IMG/VR virus record: IMGVR_UViG_3300035182_002389
Span: 32,001 to 96,000 of that record
Origin: a virus
Taxonomy: Duplodnaviria; Caudoviricetes
Strand: one strand, 5' to 3'
Length of the DNA stretch: 64,000 bases
Part shown: piece by piece, positions 6,128-62,940 of the stretch
How positions within the stretch are numbered: the first letter of the stretch is position 1
Layout of the letters: the number at the start of each line of letters is the position of its first letter
Translations under genes and position numbers: made by a program
Notes under the pieces: model-generated
The model's input: the letters and a program-made list of their open reading frames with translations, nothing else
Told to the model about the DNA's origin: nothing
The model's database searches: none

Positions 6128-6340
6128 ATGGACGCGAGGACCGCTTGGATCTTCGCGGGCGCAGTGTGGTGCTGCACCCTGCTCAGCATCGGCGTTACGC
6201 GGCTCTTGATCTGGAGGCTGCGCAAGAAGGTCGTCAGGCTCGAAAAGGCCGCCGCCCTGCACGACGAATGGTCGAAATCGAGGAAGGCGTCCGACAAAGG
6301 GACGCGCGTCCTCGACCTCGACCTTCACGACGAAGGCTAG
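6128..6340 (+). CDS. Small membrane protein
   Basis: N-terminal TM helix. Confidence 0.55.
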   Translation: MDARTAWIFAGAVWCCTLLSIGVTRLLIWRLRKKVVRLEKAAALHDEWSKSRKASDKGTRVLDLDLHDEG

Positions 6341-6672
6341 TCGCGGTCTCGGAGCGCGCCGAGGACCGAGTAGGCCGCGCCGGCTGCGAGGCGGTCCATG
6401 TTCTCTTGGTGGCGGGCCTCTGGAGTCATCGAAGCGAGGCGGGTCTGGTCCTTGTTCCACATCCAGATGCCGACGCCCACCAGGCCGACCACGAGACCGC
6501 CGACGAGCAGGGTGCCGGTCGTGATCCCGGTCTGCTGCGGGGGCGCGGCATAGCCGATGGGCTGCGTGAACTGCGGGTCAGCGACGGGGACGACGGGAGC
6601 AACGACCGCTCCGGTGGAGGCGTTGCAAAGGAGGGGGCGACGGTACGGAGCGGCCATGGGCGGATCGTACAT
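6337..6672 (-). CDS. Membrane-anchored protein, possibly virion-associated
   Basis: STGA motif and TM segment LLVGGLVVGLVGVGIWMWNK. Confidence 0.55.
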   Translation of the reverse strand: MYDPPMAAPYRRPLLCNASTGAVVAPVVPVADPQFTQPIGYAAPPQQTGITTGTLLVGGLVVGLVGVGIWMWNKDQTRLASMTPEARHQENMDRLAAGAAYSVLGALRDRD

Positions 6673-6730
6673 GGCGTGAGATGACGCGACAACCGCGTCT
6701 ACGGGCAGGCGGCAGGAAAGGCGGGTGGCG

Positions 6731-8781
6731 ATGCTGAGTCGAATCACAGCGCAGCGCAAAAGGCGCTGTTTTATGGTCTACGACATGGAGTGGATCCCGG
6801 GCCAGTTGGAGGTCCGTCTCCTCGGCCTGTACGACGGCGACCGATACCGCGCGTTCCACAAGGTCGACGACTTCCTCAACGCGGTGCTGGTGCGTGAGAA
6901 CGCGGACAAATGGCTCTACGCCCACTACGGCGGCATGGCCGACGCGCAGTTCCTCCTCCAGCGCCTCGCCTCGCGCGCGGACGAGGGCTTTCAGATCGAC
7001 GCGTCCTTCTCGGGCTCGTCGGCCATCATCATCCACGTCACGCGCGGCGAGCTGAGCTGGCACTTCATCGACAGCTTCTGGCTGCTGCGCGATCGGCTCT
7101 CGAAGATCGGCGAAGCGGTCGGCCTCGAAAAGATGGGCGAAGAGTACGCCTGCGACAACTTCCCGAACTGCGGACACGTCGACAGCAACGAGATGAAGTA
7201 TCTCGATCCCTGCTCGTGCACGCACTCCTATGGAGCGCACGACAAGCAGCCGGGCACCAAGGACCTCGCGTGCCTCGCGTGCGGGTGCAGGAAATACGAC
7301 GGCGATCACCCCTACGCGATGTGCGTCTTCTGGGCGCCGATCGCCGAGCTGACGACGTACAACGAACGCGACTGCGTCATCTTGTACAAGGCCATCGAGC
7401 GCTTCGAGCAGACGCTGCTCGATCTCGGCGGCCAGCTCCAGATGACGATTGCCTCGTGCGCGATGCACCTCTTTCGTCGCAAGTACCTCCAAGACGACAT
7501 TCGCACCGTCGCCGCCGTCAACGGGTGGGCTCGAAAGGCCTACACGTCTTCACGCGTGGAGGTGTTCCAGACCCACTGTGAGAACGCTCACTATTTTGAC
7601 CTGAACTCGTCTTTTCCGTTCGCGATGACATTTGACTGTCCTGGCAACGTGAAGAAGATGCGCGCGAAGAAGCTGCCTCCCTACGGCAGCATCTACATCG
7701 CCGAGTGCGAGATCATCGTGCCCGAGATGTACCTGCCGCCGCTGCCGTTCCGGCACGACGGGCGCGTCTTCTTCCCGACGGGCACGTGGACGAGCTGGTT
7801 CTCGAACATCGACCTGGAGCTGCTTCAGAAGCGCGGCGGACGAATCGTGAAGGTGATTCAGTCCATCGAGTTCGAGAAGCAATCCTCTCTTCGCGAGTAC
7901 GCGATCGACATCTATGCAAAGAGAAAAGCCGCGACGACGAGCTACGAAAAGCTCATCCTCAAGTATCTGTTGAATAGCCTTGGGGGCGGGATGCGGATGG
8001 CGCCCTTGGCCGCATCCCGAGCCCCCTCTGGCGCCCATAGGAACTCTACGGAAAGTTCGGCGAGCGCACCGAGAAGACCTCGATGCTGCTCCATCCAACG
8101 TCGACCGACTGTCCTCACACGCCGAAGCATCGGTGCGACAGTTGGCCCATCTGCCCGCACGCCATCGAAGGCGTCGAGTGCAACCTCTGCATCCAGATGC
8201 TGTTCCCTGGGTGTTTGCTCGTCACCAACGAGGTCGAGCTGGCGCACGAGTGGGTGCCCATCGCGGTCCACATCACGGCCACCGCCCGCAAGAACCTCGA
8301 AGGTCACCTCTGGAATGCGCAGGAGGACATCTACTACTGCGACACCGACAGCGTCATCACGACCGTGCAGCTCCCGAGCGATCCGACCACCCTCGGCGCG
8401 CTCAAGCTCGAAGACGAGATCCGTAAGGGCGAGTTCATCGCCTGCAAAATCTACGCGGTCGAAGTCATCGACGAGAAGACTGGCCACGGTCACTGGAAGA
8501 CCAAAGCAAAAGGCTTCTCCAAGATGAACTACAGCAAGTTCGTCGACGTGAAGCTCGGCAACGACATCAAGCTCGCGCGCATGACGCGCATCCGCGAGCT
8601 GTATCGAAAGGGCAAGATCGTCCCCGAGGAGAACATCGTCGCCAAACGCCTCGTGCAGAAGTGCATGGCGAAGCGCTGCATGCTCCCGTCGGGACAAAGC
8701 CGCCCTTGGACGATCGAGGAAATCCAGAGAAACCGCATGGATCTCGGCATCGACATCGATCCCATGATCCTGTCGGATTGA
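6731..8781 (+). CDS. polB: Family B DNA polymerase of protein-primed type, split by a 65-nt insert (segments 6731-7981 and 8047-8781)
   Basis: Exo YDME / HFIDSFWLL / YNERDC; motif A YFDLNSSFPFAM; motif B KYLLNS+LYGKFG across the break; motif C YCDTDS; KAKG. Confidence 0.9.
7982..8046 (+). other. 65-nt structured intervening sequence in polymerase motif B
   Basis: Removal restores the frame and NSLYGKFG; perfect 10-bp stem 7987-7996/8010-8019 plus G5/C5. Confidence 0.85.
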
Positions 8782-13142: not shown

Positions 13143-13535
13143 ATGGACAGCACCTGGAAGTGGGCGGCCGGAGCATTGGGGCTCGGCGTGGTCGGCTACT
13201 TGGTCCTGCGGCCGGGCGCTTCCGCGGACGCTCCCAAGCTCGTGCTTCGGACCGAGTGGAACGCATCGCACCGCTCGCCGCTGCTCACCGAGGTCTCCGC
13301 CGCGGAACTCGCGGCGGCCTCGGCACACATCCCGAGGCTCCCCACGCAGGGAGAGCTTGCCGCGACCATCGTGCGCGGCGGCGTCGTTTCGGTGCGCCCT
13401 GTCGGCATCGAGTCCTACGACGCGAGCACGGGCATCGGACAAATCTACGATCGCACCGATCTCGCCGCCCCGCAGTCGTGGTCGAACGTGCGCGTCGCCG
13501 ATTTCGTGGGCGCCGTTTCGTTCCTGATCCACTGA
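13143..13535 (+). CDS. N-terminally membrane-anchored protein
   Basis: WKWAAGALGLGVVGYLVLR; leaderless. Confidence 0.6.
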   Translation: MDSTWKWAAGALGLGVVGYLVLRPGASADAPKLVLRTEWNASHRSPLLTEVSAAELAAASAHIPRLPTQGELAATIVRGGVVSVRPVGIESYDASTGIGQIYDRTDLAAPQSWSNVRVADFVGAVSFLIH

Positions 13536-15627: not shown

Positions 15628-16452
15628 TCAACCGAGAACGCCGTAGAGCGTCACGTTGCGCGGCAGGCTGATCGTCTGGGGGCTGCCGTTCTTGAACTCG
15701 ATCGTGAAGGGCATGCCGCCGCCGAGAACGATCGGCTTGAGGTCCAGGGGCACCGAAATGGAATAGAACCCGTCGGCGATGGGCGCCATGAGCCCGTTGA
15801 CGCGCGTCTGATACATCGCCGCGGCGTTCGCGTTCTGCGTCTGCGCGGGAACGTTGGCGCTCGAAGGCGGCCAGACGATGTTACGCCCTGCTCGGACGAC
15901 GTCAGGCATCGCTGCCGCACCGTTTGCGTCGAACTCCCACGAGATGCCCGTCGGTCTGAACTGTCGACCGCTCACGAAGGCCATGATCGCCTGCGATCCG
16001 CCGTTGCCGGGAATGCTGGGAGCGATGCCCGGGGGCAGGTTCCACGCGAACGGAATGCTCGCGTCGAACGGGCCGAGCTTGGCACGCTGCGCCGGGTTGA
16101 GCGTCGCCCGCGCGGGAGCGCGCAGCGCCGCCGCGTTGAACGCCAGGGGCGCCGCGGTGCGCACGGGGGACGTTCCCTGCTGGCGAAGCGCAGCCATCGC
16201 CGCGCCGTCGGCACCGCCGAGGTGCGCGAGGGCGGAGGCCGCGTGGACGTCGGGCGTCACGAGGCCGCCGAAGGGCTGCACGCCGGCGGTGTGGGCGGCG
16301 TACATCGAGGCCGCGTGGACGTCCGCGGTGAGCAGGCCCGAGAGGGGATGGTTCGCCGAGCGACGGAGCTGCTCGGTGTACGAGAGGCCGCGCGCGGCGG
16401 GCGCGCCGCCGGTCTGGGCGTGGTTCTGACCGCAAGAGGGGCAATAGGGCAT
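15628..16452 (-). CDS. CxxC-H leader family protein 1, putative virion protein
   Basis: MPYCPSCGQNHAQTGG; PFGGLVTP repeats; beta-rich C-terminus. Confidence 0.7.
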   Translation of the reverse strand: MPYCPSCGQNHAQTGGAPAARGLSYTEQLRRSANHPLSGLLTADVHAASMYAAHTAGVQPFGGLVTPDVHAASALAHLGGADGAAMAALRQQGTSPVRTAAPLAFNAAALRAPARATLNPAQRAKLGPFDASIPFAWNLPPGIAPSIPGNGGSQAIMAFVSGRQFRPTGISWEFDANGAAAMPDVVRAGRNIVWPPSSANVPAQTQNANAAAMYQTRVNGLMAPIADGFYSISVPLDLKPIVLGGGMPFTIEFKNGSPQTISLPRNVTLYGVLG

Positions 16453-16522
16453 GGAGGATCTCCTTGCTGCCGAGGCTACCACTTTTGCTTCGACTCGTGC
16501 CAAAACAAGAAGACGCCCTCGC

Positions 16523-16537
16523 GGCTTTCGACAAGCC
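16523..16537. promoter_or_regulatory. Palindromic box
   Basis: GGCTTTCGACAAGCC upstream of the minus-strand gene. Confidence 0.55.
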
Positions 16538-16568
16538 GTGCGCCTCACACCTCGCGAGACGAAAAGGA

Positions 16569-16636
16569 CGCGCCTTCGGCGCGAGCACGACCTTCGGTCG
16601 AGGACGCTCCTTCGGAGCGAGGACGCGCTTCGCGCG
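16569..16636. repeat. Four-hairpin triloop array, copy 2
   Basis: CGCGCC-TTC-GGCGCG AGCA CGACC-TTC-GGTCG AGGA CGCTCC-TTC-GGAGCG AGGA CGCGC-TTC-GCGCG. Confidence 0.9.
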
Positions 16637-16648
16637 AGGCGAGAAGTC

Positions 16649-17131
16649 TCAGAAGCGGTTGTACGTGAGCTTGCCCGAAGGGAACGCGAGGGGCGCGTCG
16701 GTCGGGTTGTAGAGGATGACCGAGAGCTGCTTGGTCACAGGCCAGCCTGCGAACGCGGGGTTCAGGGCGACGTCTTGGTTCGCGCGGGCGAGGTAGAGCT
16801 GGCCCGCGCTCGTCGGCACGGGTTCGAGCGTGAGCTTGCCGAACGACCTGTGAGCCTTCGCACGGTTGATGACGTCGCGGCCGACCTTGATCTCGGCGAT
16901 GTAGAGGTCGGGGCTCTCGAAGGTCACCGTGACGGGCTTGATGGGCGAGCCCGTGTAGTAGATCGCCTCCTTGAACCCGTGCGCGGGGACGATCCCCGCG
17001 CCGGGCAAGGGCATCGCGTACGCCCCACGGTGGAACATGCTCTCGATCATCGCGAACGCTTTTGACGAGCGCGGCACGATGCCGGCGCCCGTTTGGGCGT
17101 GCGCGGTTCCACAGTGGGGGCAACGCTTCAT
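16649..17131 (-). CDS. CxxC-H leader family protein 2
   Basis: MKRCPHCGTAHAQTGA; SPDLYIAEIKVGRD...LSVILYN. Confidence 0.7.
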   Translation of the reverse strand: MKRCPHCGTAHAQTGAGIVPRSSKAFAMIESMFHRGAYAMPLPGAGIVPAHGFKEAIYYTGSPIKPVTVTFESPDLYIAEIKVGRDVINRAKAHRSFGKLTLEPVPTSAGQLYLARANQDVALNPAFAGWPVTKQLSVILYNPTDAPLAFPSGKLTYNRF

Positions 17132-17153
17132 GGTGCGGCCTTCTCTCGCGAGA

Positions 17154-18464
17154 TCAGGAGACCAAAGCCGAGAGCGTCACGTTCTGCGGGACGCTCGTGA
17201 GCGCGACCGGACCGGGCCCGCGGTTGACGAACTCGACCCAGAAGCCCGAGCCCGCCTGACCGGGCGCCGACTGACCGAGCTTGAACGCCTTGAGCGCGCT
17301 GAGCGAGACCGATCGGGTTGCGCGCTGCTTCGTCCCCTGCGACGCGGCCCGCGGACCCGCGCTGCCCGCCTGGTAGACGTAGCCGTTGTTCGCGTGGATG
17401 GCCGACAGCTCCCAGCCCGCCGAGGCCGCAGCGCTCTGCCACTGGAGCGTGTTCGGCTTGATGGTCTCGCCGTTCTCGGGCAGGTACACGCGGAAGTTCG
17501 CGCCGACGGGGTAGTTGGTCCCCGGCGGGAAATGCGGCACCGGCGGGTCCGGGAACGCGAGGGTCGCTTGATGCGGCGCGACCGTTGCGCGGGCAGGGAC
17601 TGCGACCTTGGCGGCCGTGTTGCCGATGCGCCGATACGCGACGGGCGCCGCGGTGCGCGCCGGAAGCGCGTTCGCCTGCTGCATGGCCTGGGGGACGCTC
17701 TGCATGCCGGCCGGGCCGCCGAGGTGCGCGAGGGCCGAGGCCGCCTTCACGGGGGGCGTGACCAGGCCGCCGAAGGGGTTTGGCGCGCCCATGTGCGCGA
17801 GCGAAGAGGCCGCGTGCACGCCGGGGGTCACGAGGCCGCCGAAGGGCAGCGCCGCGCCGGTGTGCACGGGGGTCCACGACGCCGGCAGGTGGAGCACCTC
17901 GCCGACCTTGAGGTCCATGAAGTTGCCGTCGATCTTGTTGGTCGCCTTCTGCGGGTTCGCAGCGGCCAGCGCCTTCCACATGTCCTTGCGGCCCGTGTGC
18001 TTGTGCGCGATGTGCGAGGGCGTGTCGCCAGCCCGCACGATGTAGACGTTGCCGCTCGCCTTCTGCTCGGCGGGCTGCACGGTGGCGGCCTGCGCGGCGG
18101 CCTTCTGCGCGGAGGCGATGAGGTTCTTCTTCGCCGTGGTCGCGCCGGTGTGCATGGGGACCGTGCCGTTCACCGACTGGCCGTAGCCGTGGCTCTGGGC
18201 GCTCGGGGCGACGGAGCGGGCGTTGAACTGCGACACGGGAACGGGCATCGCCGTGAGGTGCTGCGGGGCGCCTGCGTGCGCGGCCTGGTAGGACGGACGG
18301 CGCGCGTTCTCGATGGCCGCCTTCGCCGCCGCTTCCTGGAGGACGGCGGCTGCGTACACCTGCTGCGTCTGCGAGCGGTAGGGGCTCGCCTGGGGGAGCG
18401 CGGGCGCCCCGGTCGCGGCGTGGGGGAGAGGGTGGTTCGTACCGCAAAAGGGGCAGAAGGGCAT
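17154..18464 (-). CDS. CxxC-H leader family protein 3 with LysM domain
   Basis: MPFCPFCGTNH; YIVRAGDTPSHIA...WKALAAAN...LKVGEVLHLP. Confidence 0.75.
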   Translation of the reverse strand: MPFCPFCGTNHPLPHAATGAPALPQASPYRSQTQQVYAAAVLQEAAAKAAIENARRPSYQAAHAGAPQHLTAMPVPVSQFNARSVAPSAQSHGYGQSVNGTVPMHTGATTAKKNLIASAQKAAAQAATVQPAEQKASGNVYIVRAGDTPSHIAHKHTGRKDMWKALAAANPQKATNKIDGNFMDLKVGEVLHLPASWTPVHTGAALPFGGLVTPGVHAASSLAHMGAPNPFGGLVTPPVKAASALAHLGGPAGMQSVPQAMQQANALPARTAAPVAYRRIGNTAAKVAVPARATVAPHQATLAFPDPPVPHFPPGTNYPVGANFRVYLPENGETIKPNTLQWQSAAASAGWELSAIHANNGYVYQAGSAGPRAASQGTKQRATRSVSLSALKAFKLGQSAPGQAGSGFWVEFVNRGPGPVALTSVPQNVTLSALVS

Positions 18465-18540
18465 GGGAGAGCTTCCTTGGTGGATCGAGAACGAAGCGGC
18501 GGACCTCGCGCGCGAGTTCACGCGCGAGATCCGCGGAGGA

Positions 18541-51433: not shown

Positions 51434-52564
51434 TCAGACGAGCGTGCCGTCGGCGTAGACCCACGCCGTGCCATTCCACCAGATCGGTTTGCCGTTGGCT
51501 CCGAGGGAGGTGTCGAAGTACGGCAGGCCGATGTTCTGCCCCGCGGCGAGAGGCGGACGCTGCGCAGTCGGACCCGCGAACGAGATGCCGCCCGGCAGGT
51601 TCACGAGCGTGCCCGTGAAGCCCACGGTCGGCGGGGTCACCGGCGAAGAGGTGCCGATGATCCAGAGCTGCGTCGTGCCGTCGCCCGAGACGACGTTTGC
51701 GGGAGACTGGCCGGGATTCAGCAGCGAGAGGATGCCGATGGCGTTCGGCGCGATGGCGATGATCGGGGCCGTCGAACCTGGATCGATCACGGAGGCGTTG
51801 TACAGCGCGACGATGACGCCGGGCCCGCCTCCCGTGTTCGGGGCATCCATCAGCGCCCGGCTCCCGAGGTTGCTCAGCGCCGCGCCAAGCTGGAGCACGA
51901 GCGCAGGAGGTTCGGCGGGGTTCGGCGCGTCGAAGGCGAAGGTTGCGAGCGAGGAGGGGATTCCTCGCACGGTCATCGAACCGACGATGCTGCTCAGGTT
52001 GCGAAGCTGCACGCCTTCGGGCGCTTCGAGCCGGTTCATGTCGGGGTTGCTGAAGGCCACCGACCGAAGGGTCGCGAGCTTCATGTCGTAGACGCCGAGC
52101 GGAATCGAGAACGGTCCCGACGTGACGCAGTCGATCCAGACGTCGATGGGCGAGGCGCTGAGGGCGATGAGGTCCATGACCTCGCCCCAGGTGTGCGCGT
52201 AACGAACGTCGGTCGGCGGCGCGTCCGGCTTGAAGATGATGCTGACCGGGTTCTCGTCGATCGCAGGAGCGTCCACGATACTCGTGCGAATCCACCGACC
52301 GATGCCCGTCGCATCGTGCGAAGTGGCCTGCTTTGCGCACAGGGCGCCCATCGCATCGCGTGCTTGCGGACCGTTGCAGGTCGACAGGACGTTGACGCCC
52401 GTGACCGCCGGCGCCGGGACGTGGAAGCTCAACCTATAGTAGCGTTCGAGGCTCTCCACGTGCGCGAGGCAGCCATCTTCGAGGCCGCTCGTGTCCGTGT
52501 TCTGAAGATCGCACGTCGTCTCGACGCGCAGAAATCCCGGGAACGGATTGTAGCCTTCCGTCAT
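51434..52564 (-). CDS. Fibre/adhesin-like protein, paralogue A1
   Basis: MTEGYNPFPGFL N-terminus shared with 52631; C-terminal GLPYFDTSLG..KPIWWNGTAWV. Confidence 0.7.
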   Translation of the reverse strand: MTEGYNPFPGFLRVETTCDLQNTDTSGLEDGCLAHVESLERYYRLSFHVPAPAVTGVNVLSTCNGPQARDAMGALCAKQATSHDATGIGRWIRTSIVDAPAIDENPVSIIFKPDAPPTDVRYAHTWGEVMDLIALSASPIDVWIDCVTSGPFSIPLGVYDMKLATLRSVAFSNPDMNRLEAPEGVQLRNLSSIVGSMTVRGIPSSLATFAFDAPNPAEPPALVLQLGAALSNLGSRALMDAPNTGGGPGVIVALYNASVIDPGSTAPIIAIAPNAIGILSLLNPGQSPANVVSGDGTTQLWIIGTSSPVTPPTVGFTGTLVNLPGGISFAGPTAQRPPLAAGQNIGLPYFDTSLGANGKPIWWNGTAWVYADGTLV

Positions 52565-52600
52565 GAAGACCATCGTCCTCGATCTACGCGGGCGAGACAA

Positions 52601-52615
52601 GGCTTACGCCAAGTC
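52601..52615. promoter_or_regulatory. Palindromic box
   Basis: GGCTTACGCCAAGTC. Confidence 0.6.
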
Positions 52616-52630
52616 TCACCCGGCCCAGGT

Positions 52631-54220
52631 CTACTTCGACCAGACCTGCCAGTAGACCGTCTGCGCCGCGTCCGCCGCCCCGCCCTTGCTCGTGATCGTG
52701 AAACTGACGCCGGCATTCACGTTCGAGAGGTAGAGAAAGCCCGTCGGCGCGACGCCGTTCGACTGGTAGCTGTACGTGACCGGCGTGCTGCCGCTGATTG
52801 CGGGAAGAAGAACGGTGAGCGCGCCGGCGCCATCCAGGGGGCCCTCACCGCTCGCAAGCGGTACGAGCGCCTTGAGCGCGTCGATTGCGTTCTGCACCGA
52901 TCCGCCAGGGCCGGTGAACGTGGGGAAGAGCACGGGCTGACCGGCAAGGACCGTCGCCCCAGGCGCCGGCGCACCCGGCGAGTTCAGGGCGCGCAGCTCG
53001 ATGTTCTCGCTGTCGAGGATCGTGACCACCGCGTAGCTGCCGCCACCAATCCCGATGAAGTCGCCCACGTGCAGGCACTGCGTCGAGTCGAACTTCGGCG
53101 TGATGGTCGACCAGAAGGCGGGCTGCACGAACGGCGTGATGAGATTCGCTTTGACCAGCGTGGGGGTGTGGGCCGCGTCGTCGTACGAGGCCTGCACGGC
53201 CTGGCTCAGCGTCGCCGCGAACCCGAACGGGCCCTGCCACGCGGGCTGGTTCGGCACGCCGTAGAACCACGTCGAGTCGTAGATGAAGTAGAGCCCAGCA
53301 CCCGGAGGACCCTTGAACGTGTTGTCGTAGCTGGTCGGTCCGAACGCAGGACCTGTCGAGCTGAACGCGATGAAACCGATGCCCGCGCCCGGCGCCGGTC
53401 CGCACTCGACGATCGGGATCGGGAACGAGCCGATGTCGAATGCAAGGTCGTTGAAGGACGCGACGAGGACGCCGCCTTGCGGCAAGTAGAGGCCAGAACG
53501 CGCGGTCGTCGCGACATTCTGGAGCCGAGCGCCTCTTGAGAAGGTGAGCAGGTTCGCGTCGTCCTGGATGATGCAGGGGCCCGTGCGCGCGTCGAGCTGA
53601 ATGACCAGGCCGTCTGTCACCTCGTAGAGATTTCGGATGACTCCGCCGAGGGGCTGGCGGAGGATCAGGTTCGGCGAGACGCCGCTCGGGCCCGTCGGGA
53701 TGTTCGCGCCCGCGAGGGTGAGGCGACCTTGGCCGTCCATCGGCACGGTCCACGGCGCGGGGGTCGCGGGCGGCATGAGCGAGTCGTCGACCTCGACGAT
53801 CAAGGCTCCGTTCGCGAGCGCAACCTGCGCCGCGACCTCGACGTCGGTCGCGAAGACATTGCCCTCGCTCACGCCGTTCGGGCGGTAGATGATCGTGCCC
53901 GAGCCCGAGGGCGAAGCTGTCGAGTCGAGGATCGAGGTGCGCACCCACCGCCCGATGCCGGTCGGGCTGTGCGCGCTCTGCCCCGGCTGCACGCAGGGGG
54001 CTCCGAACGCGTCGAGCCCGTCGGGCCCGTTCCAGGTCGAGAGCACGTTGACGCCGTCGACCGCGGGCGCGGGGACCTTCGTGCTCAGGCGGTAAAACCG
54101 GCCCGTGTCGACCACATATGCGAGGCAGCCCTCTTCGAGCCCGTCGGTCGACGAGTTCTGAAGCTCGCACGTCGTGGGCGCGGTGAGAAAGCCCGGGAAC
54201 GGGTTGTAGCCTTCGGTCAT
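52631..54220 (-). CDS. Fibre/adhesin-like protein, paralogue A2
   Basis: MTEGYNPFPGFL N-terminus; leaderless (TACGCT +7 nt). Confidence 0.7.
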   Translation of the reverse strand: MTEGYNPFPGFLTAPTTCELQNSSTDGLEEGCLAYVVDTGRFYRLSTKVPAPAVDGVNVLSTWNGPDGLDAFGAPCVQPGQSAHSPTGIGRWVRTSILDSTASPSGSGTIIYRPNGVSEGNVFATDVEVAAQVALANGALIVEVDDSLMPPATPAPWTVPMDGQGRLTLAGANIPTGPSGVSPNLILRQPLGGVIRNLYEVTDGLVIQLDARTGPCIIQDDANLLTFSRGARLQNVATTARSGLYLPQGGVLVASFNDLAFDIGSFPIPIVECGPAPGAGIGFIAFSSTGPAFGPTSYDNTFKGPPGAGLYFIYDSTWFYGVPNQPAWQGPFGFAATLSQAVQASYDDAAHTPTLVKANLITPFVQPAFWSTITPKFDSTQCLHVGDFIGIGGGSYAVVTILDSENIELRALNSPGAPAPGATVLAGQPVLFPTFTGPGGSVQNAIDALKALVPLASGEGPLDGAGALTVLLPAISGSTPVTYSYQSNGVAPTGFLYLSNVNAGVSFTITSKGGAADAAQTVYWQVWSK

Positions 54221-54270: not shown

Positions 54271-55647
54271 TCAGCGGATGCGCGTCATCGAAGCCGCGGC
54301 AAAGCCGCTGTTCACGCCTCCGCCGAAACCGGCCGCGTTGGTTGCGAGGTCGAGATTCGCGATGGTGAAGTTGCGCACCGTCGTGAGCGCGGGAGGCGCA
54401 ACCGTCGTGTCGTAGGCCGCCCCAGAAGTCGCCCCGTTCAACTTGAAATCGTAGGTCGCGGTGTCCGCACCGCGAGCCTGCACGCCCCCAGTCCACGTTG
54501 AGGGGAGGCACTGAACGACCCCGCAGCGAACCTCGAAGACGTACGAGCCCGCGACCGCCGAGAGGCCCGCGATGGAGTTCGAGGGACCGTTGACGAAGAA
54601 GCTCGCGCCTCTATCGACTTGGACGGCCGCGTTGGACCAATCCATGAACAGGACCTCGGTCCCAAACACGAAACATCCCGGATGGCCGAGATTCACGGTG
54701 ACGCCTTGAAATAGCGTTCCTTGGCTGAAGATGGTGAAGCCTGGTTCCCCGAAGCCGGGAGCGATGAGGAACAGGCCTCCGCGCCACTGCCACGAAGCCG
54801 GACCCGACGCTCCGAAGGTGATGGCTCCAGCCCCCGTCGGGCTACAGCAGTTGTAGGTCAGAACATTGCCCGACATGTACGTGCCAAACACCGTCGAAGA
54901 GAACCGGCAACTGAACATGTAGAGGTGGGCGTCGTTGCCCACGAAACTGTCCACGATCGTCGACGAGCGGAAATCGCAGAACTGCGCGAACATGCCGTTC
55001 GGTGCGACGAAGATCACGGCTCCCTTCGCATGAAAGCGAACCGCTCCCGTGAACACCGTCATCGTGTAGACGGAGAACGCGTCCGCGCTCACCGGAGCCA
55101 CCTCCGTCGCGAGAATCGTGACCGTGGAAGGCAGAACGCGAAACGTCGGGCAAAGCCGGTAGTGGCCGGCCACCCCGTTCCACGCGGTGACGACCTTGCC
55201 GATCCAGGCGTAACAGTTCGCGGTCGAGTCGTAGAAGAGCGCGCTGCCGACGTAGGCGTCGAGGTTTGCGTTGACCGAGATTTCGAGCGCGAGCCCCGAA
55301 GCCTGCGAGCGCTGATGGTCGACCGTGAGCACGCCGCTCGCGACCGACGTCAGCGTTCCCTGAATGATGACCTGTCCGCCCGACTGGAGATACGGCTCGA
55401 AAGTCAGGTCTTCGGCGACCGTCGCATCGAGGAACGTGATGGTCACGACCGCCGAGACGATCGGCGAGACGCCGTAGCGCTTGATGAATGCTGCGAACGT
55501 CTTCAGTGGCGCGGTCGAGGAGAGGCCGGTGTTCGCGTCGCTGCCGGTCGCGTTGCTGATCCAGATGGACAGGGCGGAGGAGATCGTCGCCGTCGACGTC
55601 TGCTGGATGAACTGCGAGATGCTCCCGGGGCTGTTGACGACGTTCAT
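54271..55647 (-). CDS. Beta-helix-like fibre protein, paralogue B1
   Basis: IWISNATGSDANTGLSSTAPLKT (pectin-lyase-type N-terminal motif). Confidence 0.7.
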   Translation of the reverse strand: MNVVNSPGSISQFIQQTSTATISSALSIWISNATGSDANTGLSSTAPLKTFAAFIKRYGVSPIVSAVVTITFLDATVAEDLTFEPYLQSGGQVIIQGTLTSVASGVLTVDHQRSQASGLALEISVNANLDAYVGSALFYDSTANCYAWIGKVVTAWNGVAGHYRLCPTFRVLPSTVTILATEVAPVSADAFSVYTMTVFTGAVRFHAKGAVIFVAPNGMFAQFCDFRSSTIVDSFVGNDAHLYMFSCRFSSTVFGTYMSGNVLTYNCCSPTGAGAITFGASGPASWQWRGGLFLIAPGFGEPGFTIFSQGTLFQGVTVNLGHPGCFVFGTEVLFMDWSNAAVQVDRGASFFVNGPSNSIAGLSAVAGSYVFEVRCGVVQCLPSTWTGGVQARGADTATYDFKLNGATSGAAYDTTVAPPALTTVRNFTIANLDLATNAAGFGGGVNSGFAAASMTRIR

Positions 55648-55666
55648 GGGTTTCTTCCTCTACCGA

Positions 55667-57013
55667 TCAAACCAGAGCCGCGGAGCCGTTCAGTCGAGAC
55701 GTGCTGCCGCCAAACCCAGAGACACCTGCCGCGGCATCGAGATGAGCAAAGGTGTACGTCACCTCGGCGGCTTGGATCCCCGAGCCCGGAACGTAGGGAG
55801 ACCCTTGCGTCTGCAACGGCAGCCCGATTTTGAAATCGTACGATGCAGTAGCCTGCCCTCGCGCATACACGCTTACGGCCCACGACGCCCCGAGATGCTG
55901 GGCGACGCCGCTCTCTCCTCGAATGACGTAGCTGCCCAACGCGGTGCTTGTCCCCGAGAGCTTTGAGATGCTGAACAAGCCTCCGTTGTCGAAACGAAGG
56001 GCTTGAACGGGCCAGTCCTGAACCATGGCATCGCCGATGAAAACCTGAGCGCATTGAGCGTAAGAATCGATCTCTCCGCCCTGCACCGTGAAGCCCGTCA
56101 AAAGGGTCACGGGAGTGCGGAAGGTAAGGTTGTTGATCGCCCCACCGCCAAGCAGATAGTAGGTCTGACCGTTGGAGTCGACGGGCCCTAGACTTGCCGC
56201 CGTCACCAACGCGTTCGAGATGAAGGATCCAGATCCAGTGGCGTATGTGAACGCCCCAGAATAGCGGACGTTTGCGGCGCACCCATACTTCGAGCTGCTT
56301 GTGAAGAGGGCCGGCTGATTGGTCGCGCTGGAGAAATCGGCGTTGATGACCCACATCGCACTGACGCTCGACCAAGTCTCGTTGCCTTGCGCCTGGATGT
56401 TGAACGCCCCCGAGAACTTCGTGAACGATACGAGATTGTAGGTATTGCCGTTCGCGACCGTTGCGACCTCCGTCGGAAACGGTCCGACAGCGACGCCGCA
56501 CTGAACGAGGGGCGTGAGGCGAACCTTGTTCGATCCCGTGTCCTTGATCGGCCAAGCGACCGCGCCGGTTCCCGACCCACTGGTCATGACGATCATGTTG
56601 ATCCCGACGTAGGTTGCCCACGTCTTCGTCGAATCCGTGATTTCGAGCGACGTGTTCGTAGTCGCGTTCCTCTGCGTCGGAACCGCCGTCAGCGAGCCCG
56701 AAGCAACAGTCGTCTGAGTGCCTGCCAAGACCACGGTTCCGCTCGAACCGACGATGGGCGAAAAGAAAATGTCCTCCGTCACCGTCGCGTCCAAAAACGT
56801 GATGATCAGCGAGGCGTTGACGATCGGCGAGACACCGTAGCGCGACACAAACGCGGCGAAGGTTGCGAGCGGCGCCGCCGCCGAGGTCCCCGCGTTCGCG
56901 TCGTTGCCGGTCGCGGCGCTCACCCAGATGCTCAGCGGCGTCGAGATGACGCCGCTCAGGGACGGCGAGAAGAACTGGTTGACGGAGCCGGGGCTGTTGA
57001 TGATGTCGGTCAT
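55667..57013 (-). CDS. Beta-helix-like fibre protein, paralogue B2
   Basis: IWVSAATGNDANAGTSAAAPLAT; RYGVSPIV shared with B1. Confidence 0.7.
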   Translation of the reverse strand: MTDIINSPGSVNQFFSPSLSGVISTPLSIWVSAATGNDANAGTSAAAPLATFAAFVSRYGVSPIVNASLIITFLDATVTEDIFFSPIVGSSGTVVLAGTQTTVASGSLTAVPTQRNATTNTSLEITDSTKTWATYVGINMIVMTSGSGTGAVAWPIKDTGSNKVRLTPLVQCGVAVGPFPTEVATVANGNTYNLVSFTKFSGAFNIQAQGNETWSSVSAMWVINADFSSATNQPALFTSSSKYGCAANVRYSGAFTYATGSGSFISNALVTAASLGPVDSNGQTYYLLGGGAINNLTFRTPVTLLTGFTVQGGEIDSYAQCAQVFIGDAMVQDWPVQALRFDNGGLFSISKLSGTSTALGSYVIRGESGVAQHLGASWAVSVYARGQATASYDFKIGLPLQTQGSPYVPGSGIQAAEVTYTFAHLDAAAGVSGFGGSTSRLNGSAALV

Positions 57014-57044
57014 GGGCGTTGCCTCTTCGAGTCCTTGTGGGTTC

Positions 57045-57059
57045 GACTTGCTGCAAGCC
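57045..57059. promoter_or_regulatory. Palindromic box
   Basis: GACTTGCTGCAAGCC. Confidence 0.65.
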
Positions 57060-57064
57060 GCCGA

Positions 57065-59782
57065 TTACAGGAGCACCGGCGCTGCGATCTGAACGAGGAC
57101 CGTGCCATTGGTCCCGTCGGCCGCGGCGAGGAGGCCCACGCGCAGGATCCAGTCGCCCTTCACGTACGCGCTCACGTCGAGGGTGAGCTTGCCAGGCGAT
57201 TTCGCCATGAAGACCGGCTGACCTGCGTTGGCCGCGAGGGGTGCTGCGGCCCACACGGTCGCACCCGCGGTCGTCGTGATCTTGCCGCCCGTCTGGATGA
57301 CGACGGAGCCCGGGAAACCGCCCGAGACCGTCGAGAGGCCGAGCGCGTAGCCTGCGAGGGCGCCCTGGCCGCCGACTCCGTCATTGGCCGCGTCGGTGTT
57401 GAAGACCTTTGCCGTGCCCGCGACGTCCTTGTAGAAGACTGGCGAGCCAATGCCGACCATCGCTTCGCCGGCCACCTCGGTGACAACGGTCGTCGATGCT
57501 GCGGCGCCCGAGTGGGTGTGCAGAGCATCCGCGTTCGACGTCGAGCCGGCCGTGAGCGTGTCGAGGTTCGCGGCGGTGACCTGCCCCACGCCGGATACGT
57601 TGTGCACGTGCACGCCGGCAATCGCGAAATTGTCCGTCGCCGTTGCGCTGCCGCCCGGCAGGTCGATGTAGCCCGTCGCGGCGCAGCTCAGGACGATGCC
57701 CGCCTGCACGACGGTGTTCGACGAGAGCTTGACGGAGTTGGTGTTCGCCGCGCCGAGGACGACGTCGCCCTTGGTCGCGCCGTTGCCGGCGTTGAGCGTG
57801 ACGTTGCCGCCCGTCGTCGTGCCCGCACCGCCCGTGAGCGTGACGCCGCCGCCCGTCGTCGTGCCTGCACCGCCCGCGATGGACGTCAGGCCGCCGACCC
57901 CTGCTGCGCCCGAGCCGGCCGCGATGGTAAGCGCGCCGCCCGTCGTCGAGCCCGAGCCTGCCGTGAGGCCGACCGTGCCGCCGCTGCCTCCCGCGCTCGC
58001 GCCCGCCGTGAGCGTGAGGTTGCCTCCAACTGTTCCGCCGGCCGCCGCAGCCACCGCGGCGTTGCCGCCCGCGCCCGCCGCGGAGCTGCCTCCCGTGAGG
58101 CTCGCCGCGCCGCCCGCACCGCTTGCTGCGCCTGCCGCGCCGCCGTTGATGGAGACTGCGCCGCCCGTGCCCGAGGTCGTCGAGGTGCCACCGTTCAATG
58201 TGAGCGCGCCCGAGGCCGCGCTGTCGGCGCCGCCGGCCGAGATCGTCAGGCTGCCGCCCACCGTCGCGCCCGTAGAGGCCGCGACGCCGAACGAATAGGT
58301 GCCCGCGCCCTGCGTCTTGGTGAAGGTCGTCGTCTGGTTCGAGATCGAGAAAACGCCCGAGTTCAGCGCGGCGCCCGTGCCGTGGATCTTGACGAAGCCG
58401 TGCGTCGAAGTGCCGCCGCCGATGAAGATGCTGTCGGTCGTGTAGCTCGCCGTGATCTGCGTACCGATCGAGATGGTGCCGCTCGACGAGACGCCGGTGC
58501 CGCCGTCGATGTTGACCGAACCGCCGCCGGCAGTGTCCGCGATGCCGCCCGCGATCTGAATGGCGCCGCCGACGAAGGTCGCGCCCTTGCTGTTGCCACC
58601 GAGGACCAGGACCGCGCCGCCCGTACCGATGGTGTTCGCGTCGCCGCCGTAGACGTGCACGGCGCCGCCCGTGCTGCTGACGGTGCCCCAGCCTTGGCCA
58701 CCCGTCAGCTCCAATGCGCCACCGACGCCCGACGTCGCACCACCACCGCCGGCCCACACCGAAGTGATGGCACCGTTGCCGGTCGCGCCCGCGTCGCCTG
58801 CGTACAGCAGCAGCGTCCCGCCGCTACCGCTACCGAACCCAAAGCCCGATGAGAAGCTTGCTCCGCCGCCCACATCGTTCGCGCTGTTCGCCGATCCGGC
58901 CCAGATGTCGAGACCGCCGCCATCGCCAGCCGTCGAGCTGCGCACGTACAGCTCGTAGCTGCCGGCGCCGTTGGTCCGCTCGAACCGCGTCGCCTGATTG
59001 AAGATCGTCGTGATCCCCGAGTTCAGAGGCGCCGACGCGATACCGTGAAGGAGGATCGTGCCGTTGGCCGACGTCCCTCCACCGATATGGATGTTGTTGG
59101 TCGTGTACGTCGCGAGAGCCTGTGTACCGATCTTGACGTCGCCCGTCGCGATTGTTGCGACCGTGCCCTTGCCGCCGTCGATGAGGACGTTGCCGCCGGT
59201 GCCCGCGCCAGCGATGTTCGGACCGCCGTAGACATGCGCATCGCCTGCGGTCGACCCTGCGCTCGTACCGCTACCCCCGCGCAGCTCCGAGTTGCCGCCC
59301 GTGAGACCGCCGGTGCCGCCCGCCATGAAAAGCGCGCCACCGACGCCCTGACCCGCCGTACCACCCGCATACCCTCCGAAGATGGAAGCTCCGCCGCCCA
59401 ACGTGTCGTTGGAGGAAAAACCTGCCGAGATGTCCACCGCACCGCCCGTGACACCAGAGCCGCCGCGCAAAGACGCATCGCCGCCCGTGCCGAGCGTGGA
59501 AGCGCCTGCCGTGAGGCTTGCTGCGCCGCCTGTGCTCGCGGTCGAAGAGGCGCCGCCCGTCAGCGAAAGGCCTCCGCCGACCCCGGCCGTCGCGCCACCC
59601 GCGCCCGCTGTCACGCTGAGCGCGTAGCCGACCCCAGTGCCCGCGCCAAAGGGAGCGCTCGTCACCGCGAGCGCGCCGAACGCGTCGATACCGTTGTAGA
59701 CCGACAGCGATTGCGCGGTCTTCAGGCGCGAGTTGACGCCGGCTTGGCTCGTGATCGGGAGGGTCAAGATCGTCGCGGCCAT
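57065..59782 (-). CDS. Gly/Ala/Thr-rich 905-aa fibre-like protein
   Basis: Recurrent GG(A/S)xx(L/I)x(G/A)G units; globular C-terminal domain. Confidence 0.75.
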   Translation of the reverse strand: MAATILTLPITSQAGVNSRLKTAQSLSVYNGIDAFGALAVTSAPFGAGTGVGYALSVTAGAGGATAGVGGGLSLTGGASSTASTGGAASLTAGASTLGTGGDASLRGGSGVTGGAVDISAGFSSNDTLGGGASIFGGYAGGTAGQGVGGALFMAGGTGGLTGGNSELRGGSGTSAGSTAGDAHVYGGPNIAGAGTGGNVLIDGGKGTVATIATGDVKIGTQALATYTTNNIHIGGGTSANGTILLHGIASAPLNSGITTIFNQATRFERTNGAGSYELYVRSSTAGDGGGLDIWAGSANSANDVGGGASFSSGFGFGSGSGGTLLLYAGDAGATGNGAITSVWAGGGGATSGVGGALELTGGQGWGTVSSTGGAVHVYGGDANTIGTGGAVLVLGGNSKGATFVGGAIQIAGGIADTAGGGSVNIDGGTGVSSSGTISIGTQITASYTTDSIFIGGGTSTHGFVKIHGTGAALNSGVFSISNQTTTFTKTQGAGTYSFGVAASTGATVGGSLTISAGGADSAASGALTLNGGTSTTSGTGGAVSINGGAAGAASGAGGAASLTGGSSAAGAGGNAAVAAAAGGTVGGNLTLTAGASAGGSGGTVGLTAGSGSTTGGALTIAAGSGAAGVGGLTSIAGGAGTTTGGGVTLTGGAGTTTGGNVTLNAGNGATKGDVVLGAANTNSVKLSSNTVVQAGIVLSCAATGYIDLPGGSATATDNFAIAGVHVHNVSGVGQVTAANLDTLTAGSTSNADALHTHSGAAASTTVVTEVAGEAMVGIGSPVFYKDVAGTAKVFNTDAANDGVGGQGALAGYALGLSTVSGGFPGSVVIQTGGKITTTAGATVWAAAPLAANAGQPVFMAKSPGKLTLDVSAYVKGDWILRVGLLAAADGTNGTVLVQIAAPVLL

Positions 59783-60138: not shown

Positions 60139-60567
60139 TCAGCCGCGTCGAACACGCGCGAGGGTGACGACCTTCGCCGAGAAGTTCTCGCGCGCGTCGT
60201 ACACATCGTCTTCGCTCGTTCGGATGCGCGAGTCGAGGGCGCGTTTTGGGCTGTGGGGGATGAGCCGCAGCGGGACGGTCTTGTAGATGGTCCTGCTCAA
60301 GCGCCGTTTCCATCGGCGAATGAGCCCGTCCGCATCGTGTTCGCCTTCCGCATCGTAGAGATGATCGCCGACGCGAACGACGACGTGCACAACGACGTAC
60401 CAAGCGTCGTCTTCGCGGTGCATGTACACCCCCCGCTCGTCGTCCGTTCGGATGATCAGGTCATAGAGCTGAGGGTCTTGCACGCCCATGCGCAGCATGG
60501 CTTGTTGAAGGCCGATCGCGTACGACCAGCACGCGCCCGTGGTCCAGCGTTTGTCTGAGCGCGCCAT
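60139..60567 (-). CDS. Papain/transglutaminase-like Cys-His-Asp protein
   Basis: GACWSYA...VHVVVRVGDHLYDAEG. Confidence 0.5.
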   Translation of the reverse strand: MARSDKRWTTGACWSYAIGLQQAMLRMGVQDPQLYDLIIRTDDERGVYMHREDDAWYVVVHVVVRVGDHLYDAEGEHDADGLIRRWKRRLSRTIYKTVPLRLIPHSPKRALDSRIRTSEDDVYDARENFSAKVVTLARVRRG

Positions 60568-60568: not shown

Positions 60569-60583
60569 GGCTTACAGCAAGTG
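60569..60583. promoter_or_regulatory. Palindromic box (one mismatch)
   Basis: GGCTTACAGCAAGTG overlapping the PLD stop codon. Confidence 0.45.
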
Positions 60584-61519
60584 CCCCGCGGCGATGTCGG
60601 CGGCAATGGCAACTTCGACCTTCGCTAGCTCCTGCACGTTCGTGACGATGACGCCCAGCTCGCGGTTGCGCGTCATCGATCCGGTCGAGAAGTTCACCGA
60701 GCCGATGTACGCCGCGGAGCCGTCCGCGAGGACGACTTTTGCGTGGATGTAGGGGCCGAGGCCCGAGTGTCCCGAGGATGGTGCGCCGCTCACATACACC
60801 TTGCCGCCCGCGGCCTTCACCATCGCGACGGAAGGGTTCGCGGCCGGAAGGTTCCCGGGCGCGTTCGCGACGACGAGGCGCACCTGAACGCCCTTTGCCA
60901 CCGCAGCGATGAGCCCTCTTGCGACGTCGTGGTCGCTGAACTCTTCGCCCTCGACGTCGAGCGTGTGTTTCGCCGACGCGATGAGCGTCATGATCTTCAG
61001 CTTCGCGTTGTCAGGCGCGACGACGAGCGCGCCCGAGGCGACGATTGGCTTGCCTGCGAAGTCGGCTGCGAAGATGGCTTCAGCTTCTGCAACATCAGCC
61101 GGGATCGTGTCGATGACGAGGTACTCGCGGTTGTGCATCGGCCCGGAGATGGACGCGTTCATCGTCATGATCCACGCGACCTTGCCGTCGAGGAGGACGC
61201 ATTTCTCGTGCGTGTACGCGAAATGCGGCGAGGCCCAAGCAACCGACACCTTCGCGCTCGTGAGCGCGGCGAACGCGAGAGAGTTCGGGCTCTCGCCCGG
61301 CGTCGAGAACGCGAAGTGCTCATTGAGCACGACCTTCACGTCGAGCCCTCGCGCGTGCGCGGCGATGATCGCGCCCAGCACCTCGTGCGAGGTGAGCATG
61401 TACATCGTGACGTGGACGCTTTTGTTTGCCGCGTCGATGGCTGCGATCAGCTCCGCGCCGTTATGGCCGTTCGGCTCGACGAGAATCGAGACGCCGCCCG
61501 CAGCCAGATCGTCGACCAT
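60572..61519 (-). CDS. Phospholipase D superfamily protein
   Basis: Two HKD motifs: YTHEKCVLLD and YIHAKVVLAD...GSVNFS...NRELG; leaderless. Confidence 0.9.
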   Translation of the reverse strand: MVDDLAAGGVSILVEPNGHNGAELIAAIDAANKSVHVTMYMLTSHEVLGAIIAAHARGLDVKVVLNEHFAFSTPGESPNSLAFAALTSAKVSVAWASPHFAYTHEKCVLLDGKVAWIMTMNASISGPMHNREYLVIDTIPADVAEAEAIFAADFAGKPIVASGALVVAPDNAKLKIMTLIASAKHTLDVEGEEFSDHDVARGLIAAVAKGVQVRLVVANAPGNLPAANPSVAMVKAAGGKVYVSGAPSSGHSGLGPYIHAKVVLADGSAAYIGSVNFSTGSMTRNRELGVIVTNVQELAKVEVAIAADIAAGHLL

Positions 61520-61555
61520 GTGCGCGAGCCTAGCAGATGTCCGACAGACTTGGCG

Positions 61556-61879
61556 TCAGATGACCTTGCCGTCCGGGGAGTAGGCCTTGAGCACACGGTA
61601 GCCCTCGAAGAAGTCCGTCACGGCCCTCTTGTAGTTGTCGTACTCGGAGTGGCCGTAGGGCTCGCGCGTCTCGGAATCGAACCGCGTGATGCGCCAACCG
61701 CCGGGACGGCTCGGATCGGGCGACAGAAGCAGGATGGTGTTCTCGTAGTCGGGGTGCGCGGTGACGGCCATCATGGGCTGCGGCGGCAGCGCTGCGTAAT
61801 GCGCGGCGAGCCTGCGCGTCATGACGCCCACGGCTCGCGAGCGAAGCACGCGACGTCGCATTTCTTCCGAGATGGCCAT
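61556..61879 (-). CDS. Hypothetical protein
   Basis: GAGGG RBS, overlap with the upstream stop. Confidence 0.55.
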   Translation of the reverse strand: MAISEEMRRRVLRSRAVGVMTRRLAAHYAALPPQPMMAVTAHPDYENTILLLSPDPSRPGGWRITRFDSETREPYGHSEYDNYKRAVTDFFEGYRVLKAYSPDGKVI

Positions 61880-62940
61880 CAGACAACCCTCACGCGATAC
61901 GTGCCCACGTTCGCGTCGGGCGAAGCGACCGCGAAGTCTGCGCTCCTGCCCTTCGGGTCGGCGGCGAGTCGGTCCAGCTCCGAAGCGTTGAAGAACACCG
62001 CCAAACCTTTGCGCTTTGCCGAGTCCACAACCGACGACGCCTGAATGGTGGGCCCGGAGATCGAGGGGAAGGTCGTGGTGATGTACTCGGCGGCGCCCGG
62101 GACAGGATCGTTCGGGCGGGTCTGCCAGATGTAGCCTTTGTCGATCGCGTCGGCGGCGATCTTTGCGCCGTACGCCGTCACGACGGTTTTGGTCGGATCC
62201 TTCGGGTCCTTCACGTACGCGGGCGGAAGAGGCTCGCTGGTCGCTCTCACGCGCACGTTGAAGAGCTTGCCGTTCGGCGATGCGATCCAACCGTCCGGGT
62301 CCTTCGTCGTCCCGAACGTCAGCATCTTCGGCGTCTTGTAGGCTGCGATGTCGTCGAGGTCGTAGCGCGCGAGGTAGACCGCGGCCTTGCCCTTGTCGAC
62401 CGTCGCCCGGATGGTCTTCGACCCGTTGTACCACGTCGGATCGTTGCGAGCGTCCGACACGTCCGAGTCTGCCATGATGTGAAATACGGCGCCGTCGCCC
62501 TCGTGATTGAGGATGTAGTTCTTGTACGCATCGCCGAAGAGGACGCGCTCCCCCTCCGCCGTGAGAACGAGCCCGTCGGGCCGCCACGGGTCGTACTCGT
62601 AGAGCTGCCCCATGCGAAACTGATCGGGCGCCGCTGCGGCGCTCTCTCGGGCCGGCGTGCCGGAAGGCTGCACCGGAAGACCGAACAGCCCAGGGAGGGC
62701 CGAGAGATCGGGCCACCCGGGCGTCGAGCCGTCCGCGAACGAAGCCCTCTCGCCTGCGGGAGCAACCACGGGCGCCGCGCTCGGAGCCTGACCTTGCAGC
62801 TCCAGAGGTGCCGGGGCCGAACCTGGCGGAGCCGACGCTCCGCTCTGCTTCGTGTAGAGCCAGTAGCCGCCGATCGCGACCGCGCCGAGGCCCACGGTCC
62901 ACAGGAACGCGCTCGACCCGCTGCCCTTGCCGTCCGACAT
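61879..62940 (-). CDS. N-terminally membrane-anchored protein
   Basis: FLWTVGLGAVAIGGYWLYTK; leaderless (TACGAT +7 nt). Confidence 0.7.
   Translation of the reverse strand: MSDGKGSGSSAFLWTVGLGAVAIGGYWLYTKQSGASAPPGSAPAPLELQGQAPSAAPVVAPAGERASFADGSTPGWPDLSALPGLFGLPVQPSGTPARESAAAAPDQFRMGQLYEYDPWRPDGLVLTAEGERVLFGDAYKNYILNHEGDGAVFHIMADSDVSDARNDPTWYNGSKTIRATVDKGKAAVYLARYDLDDIAAYKTPKMLTFGTTKDPDGWIASPNGKLFNVRVRATSEPLPPAYVKDPKDPTKTVVTAYGAKIAADAIDKGYIWQTRPNDPVPGAAEYITTTFPSISGPTIQASSVVDSAKRKGLAVFFNASELDRLAADPKGRSADFAVASPDANVGTYRVRVV

Follow-up and report, generated by a model that had tools for sequence, protein, structure and literature searches.

A probably tailless, membrane-containing virus of at least 202 kb with a conserved single-jelly-roll module

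What kind of particle could enclose the genome from which the 64,000-nucleotide stretch analysed here (the window) derives? The window covers positions 32,001-96,000 of one virus record of 202,518 bp (IMGVR_UViG_3300035182_002389; 65% GC, classed as linear, CheckV 94%); the whole 202.5-kb contig is called C1 below, and window position 1 is C1:32,001. For bacterial viruses with genomes of 200 kb, it is generally assumed that a tailed head and a terminase motor are required. An earlier note on this DNA had instead proposed, from a set of membrane-anchored proteins, a phospholipase D, a histone-like protein and a DNA polymerase B (PolB), a large membrane-containing and possibly tailless virus of Varidnaviria/Singelaviria type. 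We conclude that C1 represents a virus of at least 202 kb, probably of Myxococcota, and that its particle is probably tailless, membrane-containing and made from a small single-jelly-roll (SJR) protein. This rests on a lack of recognisable packaging genes, on a gene module common to large and small relatives, and on the predicted fold of one conserved protein.

In order to look for a packaging motor, all six reading frames of C1 were searched for terminases (PF03237, PF03354 and PF04466) and for ATPases of the A32 (PF04665), HerA (PF01935) and FtsK (PF01580) types. Neither set gave any match while the controls were positive, on a contig that may be incomplete; PF03354, PF04466 and PF01580 were also without match in six frames of four related records. 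Portal, HK97 capsid, sheath, tube, baseplate and tape-measure families were looked for among the Pfam and PHROG matches listed for called genes of at least 95 residues, and none was present there. Thus the lack of a terminase noticed in the window extends to the whole contig, and TerL, portal and HK97 genes, for which the earlier note had left room elsewhere on C1, were not found in these searches. That note had also pointed to an FtsK/A32 ATPase, a jelly-roll capsid protein and terminal inverted repeats as features to be sought. The ATPase was absent as described, no direct or inverted repeat was found at the ends of C1, and the listed matches, with few proteins folded, included no double-jelly-roll family, the conserved candidate being a single jelly roll. 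Walker A motifs were credible in only three proteins, a UvrD helicase, one of SMC type and one of RadA type. Those tail-labelled PHROG matches that were located on C1 proved to be collagen repeats; one fibre-like gene contained a match to a head-decoration PHROG. Our own codon-model gene caller found 341 genes on C1 (88% of the contig covered), and the matches listed for those of at least 95 residues named replication, nucleotide, RNA-repair, lysis and fibre functions; a sigma factor, RtcB, ThyX and lysins were among the matches.

A search with PolB revealed another large virus (194 kb, 57% GC), likewise without a terminase match, in which a syntenic block holds a membrane protein, a 187-198-residue protein (the SJR protein), an array of paralogues and a protease. 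On C1 the protease is g244 (C1:133734-134144), with invariant Cys, His and Asp residues; of the 19 genome contigs with relatives of it, 14 bear the label Myxococcota or Deltaproteobacteria. Twenty-five loci, mostly on contigs of Myxococcota metagenome-assembled genomes (MAGs), were gathered through the protease, which is therefore universal among them by construction; by BLAST, the SJR protein was found in 23 and the membrane protein in 14, most loci kept the order membrane protein, SJR, protease, and no P-loop family was conserved across them. One relative carrying the module is a complete circular genome of 29.8 kb with a 97-bp terminal repeat, in which Walker A motifs were absent from all six frames and head and packaging families from the matches listed; its baseplate-hub PHROG match was just its lysozyme domain. 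Another is a provirus of about 29 kb in a Deltaproteobacteria MAG, which begins with a serine-recombinase-like gene, lies between chromosomal genes that read as secretion-type and defence-type, and likewise gave no sign of a terminase or a packaging ATPase. Both large viruses, the 29.8-kb circle and the provirus share five families: the membrane protein (g235 on C1), the SJR protein (g236), the protease (g244), a coiled-coil protein (g291; a member of its family lies at 163 kb) and amphipathic proteins (g251-253), the matches of the last two being weak in the circle. Since complete or integrated small genomes carry the module without terminase or ATPase, the absence of these genes is a trait of the group beyond the effects of an incomplete contig, and the tailless, membrane-containing reading is supported independently of the window. 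No published description of this virus group was found in literature searches.

Two conserved families had been considered for other roles and were rejected. The 136-residue protein was not a capsid protein but the transglutaminase-like Cys-His-Asp protease itself, and a family of about 300 residues, tried as ATPase or capsid, had no P-loop, looked coiled-coil and gave no informative fold match. Between the SJR and protease genes (C1:129536-133514 and the equivalents in L022 and L032) lie arrays of short paralogues, of different families in each virus. A small-residue-(Val/Thr)-Gly-(Ala/Gly) motif, possibly a protease site, was seen in the first 45 residues of 26 C1 genes (shuffles: mean 13.9, maximum 25).

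The SJR gene g236 (C1:128822-129385) lies outside the window, beside the membrane protein gene. Its product was modelled as a disordered arm followed by an eight-stranded domain, with a model confidence (pLDDT) of about 90 or more over residues 60-178. The closest folds were those of HHIV-2 chain b, at Z 8.1, and of the SPV1 capsid protein, at Z 8.0, followed by GOLD and other cellular sandwiches at 7.7 or below; Foldseek ranked the same two first with SPV1 on top (E 0.006 and 0.013; 0.004-0.006 for SPV1). Superposition on the SPV1 capsid protein covered 119 residues with a root-mean-square deviation of 3.2 and 9-11% identity. As the tied top folds are a probable penton and a capsid protein, the fold alone cannot separate the two roles. 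Among the five families common to the four genomes the SJR protein is the sole beta-barrel, the codon bias of its gene is among the strongest in both large genomes, and its family is very large and includes tandem fusions; it is a candidate for the major capsid protein. In this respect the genome looks like SPV1 and the Singelaviria and motor-less, so that the affinity first suggested would stand for the single-jelly-roll viruses and fall for the tectiviruses.

Within the window, four tandem genes appear to encode divergent members of the same family. Their C-terminal domains matched the SJR-family profile by HHalign at 65% (E=6e-5, 86 columns) against less than 0.2% for five control profiles; one of the four also had a weak LysM match (E=0.003). 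With a second clear family gene far from the structural block (C1:27240-27875; L002:7340-7975), SJR genes on C1 are found at 27 kb, 48-51 kb and 129 kb, and the 194-kb virus carries four copies and the 29.8-kb virus two. The family comprises 4,854 clusters, some with two to four tandem domains; such naturally fused proteins (P0139-P0288, e.g. P0219, P0251 and P0175), with two, three or four SJR domains each, may represent a separate path to a double jelly roll. A complex prediction for three copies of a tandem double-domain relative scored 0.24 and is counted neither for nor against the proposal.

The membrane-associated inventory of the window is real, in some cases with corrections. A strict anchor rule (an uncharged Gly-rich helix, aromatic residues, then Lys/Arg) was passed by 34 of the 341 called genes, whereas 100 shuffles gave 3.9 on average and at most 8. 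Three of the five anchored open reading frames that had been named, at 49387, 50011 and 61879, satisfied it; that at 6337 has its segment inside the protein (residues 48-73), and the helix of that at 13143 is of the same style and slightly too short. The anchored glutaredoxin has its anchor and a C-terminal glutaredoxin-like domain, the latter with a Pfam E-value of 0.007, below the curated cut-off, and a WCGHT motif with one Cys. As for the peptidase-like protein at 60139, the Cys-His-Asp motif is there, without a Pfam match, and the profile of the conserved viral protease does not match it. The phospholipase D and the histone H1-like protein were present as described; six such Lys/Ala-rich genes lie at 66-193 kb of C1. 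Also in the window are two proteins with a common N-terminal module, which belongs to a family of about ten members on C1. The module (model pLDDT 80) was tried as a jelly roll and rejected, its best folds being modules of phage tailspikes (Z 8.1), which suggests receptor-binding parts and is no proof of a tail. The three neighbouring spike or fibre candidates include one of 905 residues for which there was no Pfam match. Coordinates are collected in Table 1.

Table 1. Features of the window (window coordinates) and the evidence for each
Feature	Position	Strand	Basis
Small protein with internal Gly-rich membrane anchor	6337..6672	-	anchor scan
PolB 5' part: exonuclease, motif A, TPR1-like region, motif B up to Asn-Ser	6725..7978	+	PF03175
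65-nt insert in PolB motif B; long hairpin and possible 6-bp pseudoknot; Leu CTT before, CTC after	7979..8043	+	same site in L066 and L011, stems kept
PolB 3' part: Leu-Tyr-Gly-Lys, motif C, C-terminus, other frame	8044..8781	+	synonymous excess against L066
N-terminally anchored protein (Gly-rich helix, Tyr, Arg)	13143..13535	+	narrowly misses strict rule
Four tandem genes, divergent SJR-like C-terminal domains (minor capsid or vertex candidates)	15628..19281	-	SJR-family profile match
Histone H1-like Lys/Ala-rich protein, candidate DNA condenser (putative role)	33565..34506	+	composition scan
UvrD-type helicase	35519..37030	+	Walker A; UvrD families in window scan
Single-stranded DNA-binding protein	39707..40252	+	PF00436 in window scan; sequence
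N-anchored membrane protein, strong codon bias	49387..49926	-	anchor scan
N-anchored protein, Pro-rich stalk, glutaredoxin-like domain (single Cys)	50011..50961	-	anchor scan, Pfam
Two receptor-binding-type proteins, common ~100-residue N-terminal module	51434..54220	-	fold of module
Three beta/Gly-rich spike or fibre candidates (458, 448 and 905 residues; putative role)	54271..59782	-	sequence only
Cys-His-Asp motif protein, possible peptidase	60139..60567	-	motif alone
Two-HKD phospholipase D superfamily enzyme	60572..61519	-	two HKD motifs, PLDc_2 E=7e-41
N-anchored membrane protein	61879..62949	-	anchor scan

Taken together, we propose that dozens of single-pass proteins would populate a host-derived membrane, on which the SJR protein, aided by the adjacent membrane protein, may form the shell lattice. 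The Cys-His-Asp protease g244 might trim N-terminal arms during maturation. By analogy with SPV1, which has no ATPase, shell and membrane would assemble without a motor around DNA condensed by the H1-like proteins; spikes with tailspike-like and collagen domains would bind the host, and muralytic enzymes would open its wall. To such a virus the window would supply the PolB, the single-stranded DNA-binding protein, the helicase, the four divergent SJR paralogues, spikes, anchors and the phospholipase D.

Several points weigh against this picture. Lipid and particle are predicted here from gene content, and none of the proteins of C1 was identified as a terminal protein for protein priming. We know of no precedent for motor-less packing of 200 kb. 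The fold evidence is modest, a Z-score of about 8 being reachable by unrelated beta-sandwiches and the Foldseek E-values exceeding 0.001; to judge from the chain naming and its disordered first 40 residues (PMC6414509), HHIV-2 chain b is most likely a penton. The anchor style occurs in just three of the 278 genes of the 194-kb relative, so the group as a whole does not show the anchor expansion. Tailspike-like modules, collagen fibres and the head-decoration match are parts that tailed phages also use. Lastly, C1 is probably incomplete: it lacks end repeats, begins with a poly-C run, and its ends resemble assembly breaks. Strand asymmetry is near zero at the left and increasingly negative rightward, with a gradient and a step fitting equally well (the gradient crosses zero at about 15 kb for four-fold sites and about 70 kb for intergenic DNA); under either, a left part may be missing, and the asymmetry hints at tens of kilobases in which a head module could be lost.

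The probable incompleteness of this linear contig is what a tailed jumbo phage would call upon, its head, portal and terminase being unassembled or too divergent and the SJR module mere cargo. A genome of this size is typical of large tailed phages, as are its sigma factor, RtcB, ThyX, lysins and tailspike-like modules, and tailed Bifidobacterium phages have a related PolB. We nevertheless regard such a phage as improbable: two independent contigs of about 200 kb would both need to miss the entire head-tail block, no sheath, tube, baseplate or tape-measure family appeared among the listed matches, where the located tail matches were collagen repeats and a lysozyme domain, and the supposed cargo serves a complete 29.8-kb genome as its structural block. 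Still further from what we would expect is a chimeric assembly, or a plasmid-like element carrying a small SJR provirus. Small relatives do integrate, dispersed repeats of 100-150 bp could mis-join contigs, and Pfam names no partition or capsid hallmark; against this, the SJR family, the coiled-coil gene and the H1-like genes are spread across C1, a 13.6-kb contig from another sample and a 38-kb contig both link PolB to the module, and GC and codon use are fairly uniform along C1.

A particle that is tailless and membrane-bound, with the SJR protein as a penton or transient scaffold and the coat made of an unrecognised protein, or with an enveloped or pleomorphic form, is the likeliest of these alternatives and in our view still unlikely. 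It would fit a top fold that is probably the HHIV-2 penton, the partner of a membrane protein just as the SJR gene here lies beside one; about 34 or more membrane proteins, the phospholipase D and the glutaredoxin-like protein would suit a protein-rich envelope, and a small SJR protein would presumably need a very large lattice to enclose 200 kb. However, the four genomes have no second beta-rich protein in common, the 301-residue beta-rich protein encoded by the 29.8-kb circle being without homologue in the compared set, the SPV1 capsid protein ties for first place among the folds, and the SJR gene has the codon bias noted above. The small SJR protein as shell of a tailless particle thus remains the reading that we favour.

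This virus was then set beside known systems. To the Portogloboviridae it is linked by a predicted SJR fold like that of the SPV1 capsid protein (VP4), as described above. SPV1 has an internal membrane and a nucleoprotein core, both of which we infer for the C1 virus. Portogloboviruses have circular genomes of about 20 kb and a Sulfolobus host, whereas C1 measures 202 kb or more with relatives in Myxococcota MAGs; here the host is bacterial, the genome about ten times larger, and a protein-primed-type PolB, a conserved Cys protease and cell-wall lysins are added. SPV1 and FLiP have no packaging ATPases (PMC8812541), and none was found here or in the complete 29.8-kb relative. The Sphaerolipoviridae and Halopanivirales (HHIV-2, HCIV-1, SH1 and P23-77) resemble it, as far as a modest fold match (Z 8.1 and 6.7) goes, in their vertical SJR proteins, and also in an SJR gene beside a membrane protein gene and in having many virion membrane proteins, here predicted. 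Sphaerolipoviruses possess a pair of major capsid proteins and a conserved packaging ATPase, and their genomes of 28-31 kb have inverted repeats and lack a canonical polymerase (PMC12643093), unlike C1 with no ATPase found, one universal SJR protein plus divergent paralogues, its own PolB and more than 200 kb. Tectiviridae, Autolykiviridae and Methanosarcina spherical virus (MetSV) offer the closest named polymerases, Gly-rich single-pass membrane proteins of virion type and lytic enzymes; their genomes of 10-15 kb are unlike C1, in which no double jelly roll, FtsK/A32-type ATPase or terminal inverted repeat was seen. The virus would work like a portoglobovirus or a sphaerolipovirus; on the features tested it belongs to neither of these, nor to the Tectiviridae or the Caudoviricetes.

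The polymerase itself matched DNA_pol_B_2 (PF03175, E=1e-26), and an uninterrupted relative aligned to phi29 polymerase across the TPR1 region, so that the sequence places it in the protein-primed type that had been claimed, protein priming itself being a candidate mechanism. Its nearest named relatives were the enzymes of MetSV, AP50, Bam35 and autolykiviruses (23-28% identity), followed by tailed Bifidobacterium phages (21%). The gene lies 39 kb from the contig end. PolB is directly linked to the structural module on the 13.6-kb and 38-kb contigs and is absent from the 29.8-kb circle and the provirus, both of which carry the module; it thus appears to be an exchangeable replication part that says little about particle shape. 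The argument from PolB and membranes to a tectivirus-like particle is therefore weak, because tailed phages carry the same type and small relatives have the module without it. Elsewhere the module pairs with a possible rolling-circle Rep, a possible primase-type gene plus serine recombinase, or a RecD-type helicase (the Rep and primase calls come from a look at the sequences only; G006 L070/L071, G003:C31:252800-282000 and G007). On the 38-kb contig (G002; L014:5638-6690 and 8032-9816) two genes that look like HerA-like ATPases adjoin PolB, and the syntenic 194-kb virus is without them.

What had not been mentioned is that the gene is interrupted. PolB breaks inside motif B, between Asn-Ser and Leu-Tyr-Gly-Lys, and removal of 65 nt restores a 663-residue enzyme collinear with its relatives. 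A relative of 51% identity (L011) has a 61-nt homologue at the identical site, in which both stems persist with one compensatory change from G-C to A-U, and a 98%-identical strain from another metagenome (L066) has a 65-nt insert with three changes, all outside the stems. Between C1 and L066, PolB shows 24 synonymous and one non-synonymous changes in 492 codons (six and one in the 3' part); with the split gene under purifying selection, the insert must be skipped. Assembly error was rejected on the strength of three samples and two lengths; simple frameshifting, because the shift would have to go in opposite directions for 65 and 61 nt, with some 20 extra residues placed inside motif B; and a split enzyme, as no start codon precedes Tyr-Gly-Lys. 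A pseudogene is unlikely given the synonymous excess, and P0018, which ends at motif B, was an adapter artefact. L066 also holds an in-frame 264-residue intein at motif C (L066:1105-1896), absent from the window, and a copy of a hairpin repeat just after the gene.

Ribosomal bypass is the likeliest way past the insert, at about even odds, with RNA splicing and all other routes together each about half as probable. CUU and CUC flank the insert in all three copies, and one tRNA reads both by wobble. As in T4 gene 60 and the Magnusiomyces byps, a short non-coding insert in an essential gene has near-matched take-off and landing codons and a stem-loop at its start; those inserts measure 50 nt and 27-55 nt, respectively (10.1101/2022.08.31.505936). 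The present one differs in its GC-rich sequence, possible pseudoknot, CUU/CUC codons and position in a polymerase active-site motif, in having no well-placed Shine-Dalgarno sequence, and in lacking an immediate stop, the codon after take-off being GGG or UGG in a frame open for about 180 codons. Its folding energy did not exceed that of shuffles (z -0.9), no Rfam family matched, and a model search found no other copy in 717 kb. Cleavage and ligation through the virus-encoded RtcB are possible; the 194-kb virus has an RtcB homologue together with an intact PolB. In a quick tree, built without named reference polymerases, the two insert-bearing lineages bracketed two uninterrupted enzymes, which implies either two separate gains or a single gain and a precise loss. 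Each end of the insert bears a CT, a possible resemblance to IS110-type junctions.

Other observations concern C1 at large. Dispersed repeats of 90-160 bp, of several families, occur throughout (e.g. window 4477-4564, 22487-22650, 26868-26999 and 49161-49358). An RlaP-type nucleotidyltransferase gene (window 1-388, gene start C1:30082) seems to harbour an intein. Taken with the genes for RtcB (C1:13768-15174) and ATP-grasp proteins, it suggests that the virus encodes a set for RNA repair or anti-defence.

Prokaryotic double-jelly-roll viruses have genomes below 20 kb (PMC8812541) and sphaerolipoviruses of about 30 kb (PMC12643093). In its fullest form our proposal is of a bacterial virus of more than 200 kb with a membrane shell of SJR domains of about 120 residues, ATPase-free packing by H1-like proteins, maturation by a cysteine protease and a PolB made by hopping over a 65-nt pseudoknot, the giant of an undescribed group that runs from 29 to more than 200 kb with thousands of capsid-protein clusters; as a whole this stays tentative. 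If true, one five-gene kit would serve a tailless, motor-less lineage from 29 to more than 200 kb, breaking the link between genome size and the tailed head and giving a bacterial counterpart to the growth from small to giant known among eukaryotic jelly-roll viruses. The PolB insert is a short candidate for a new case of translational bypassing. The SJR family, with its 4,854 clusters, is a marker for a large virus group without a match in the phage collection searched, and its proviruses point to Myxococcota as hosts.

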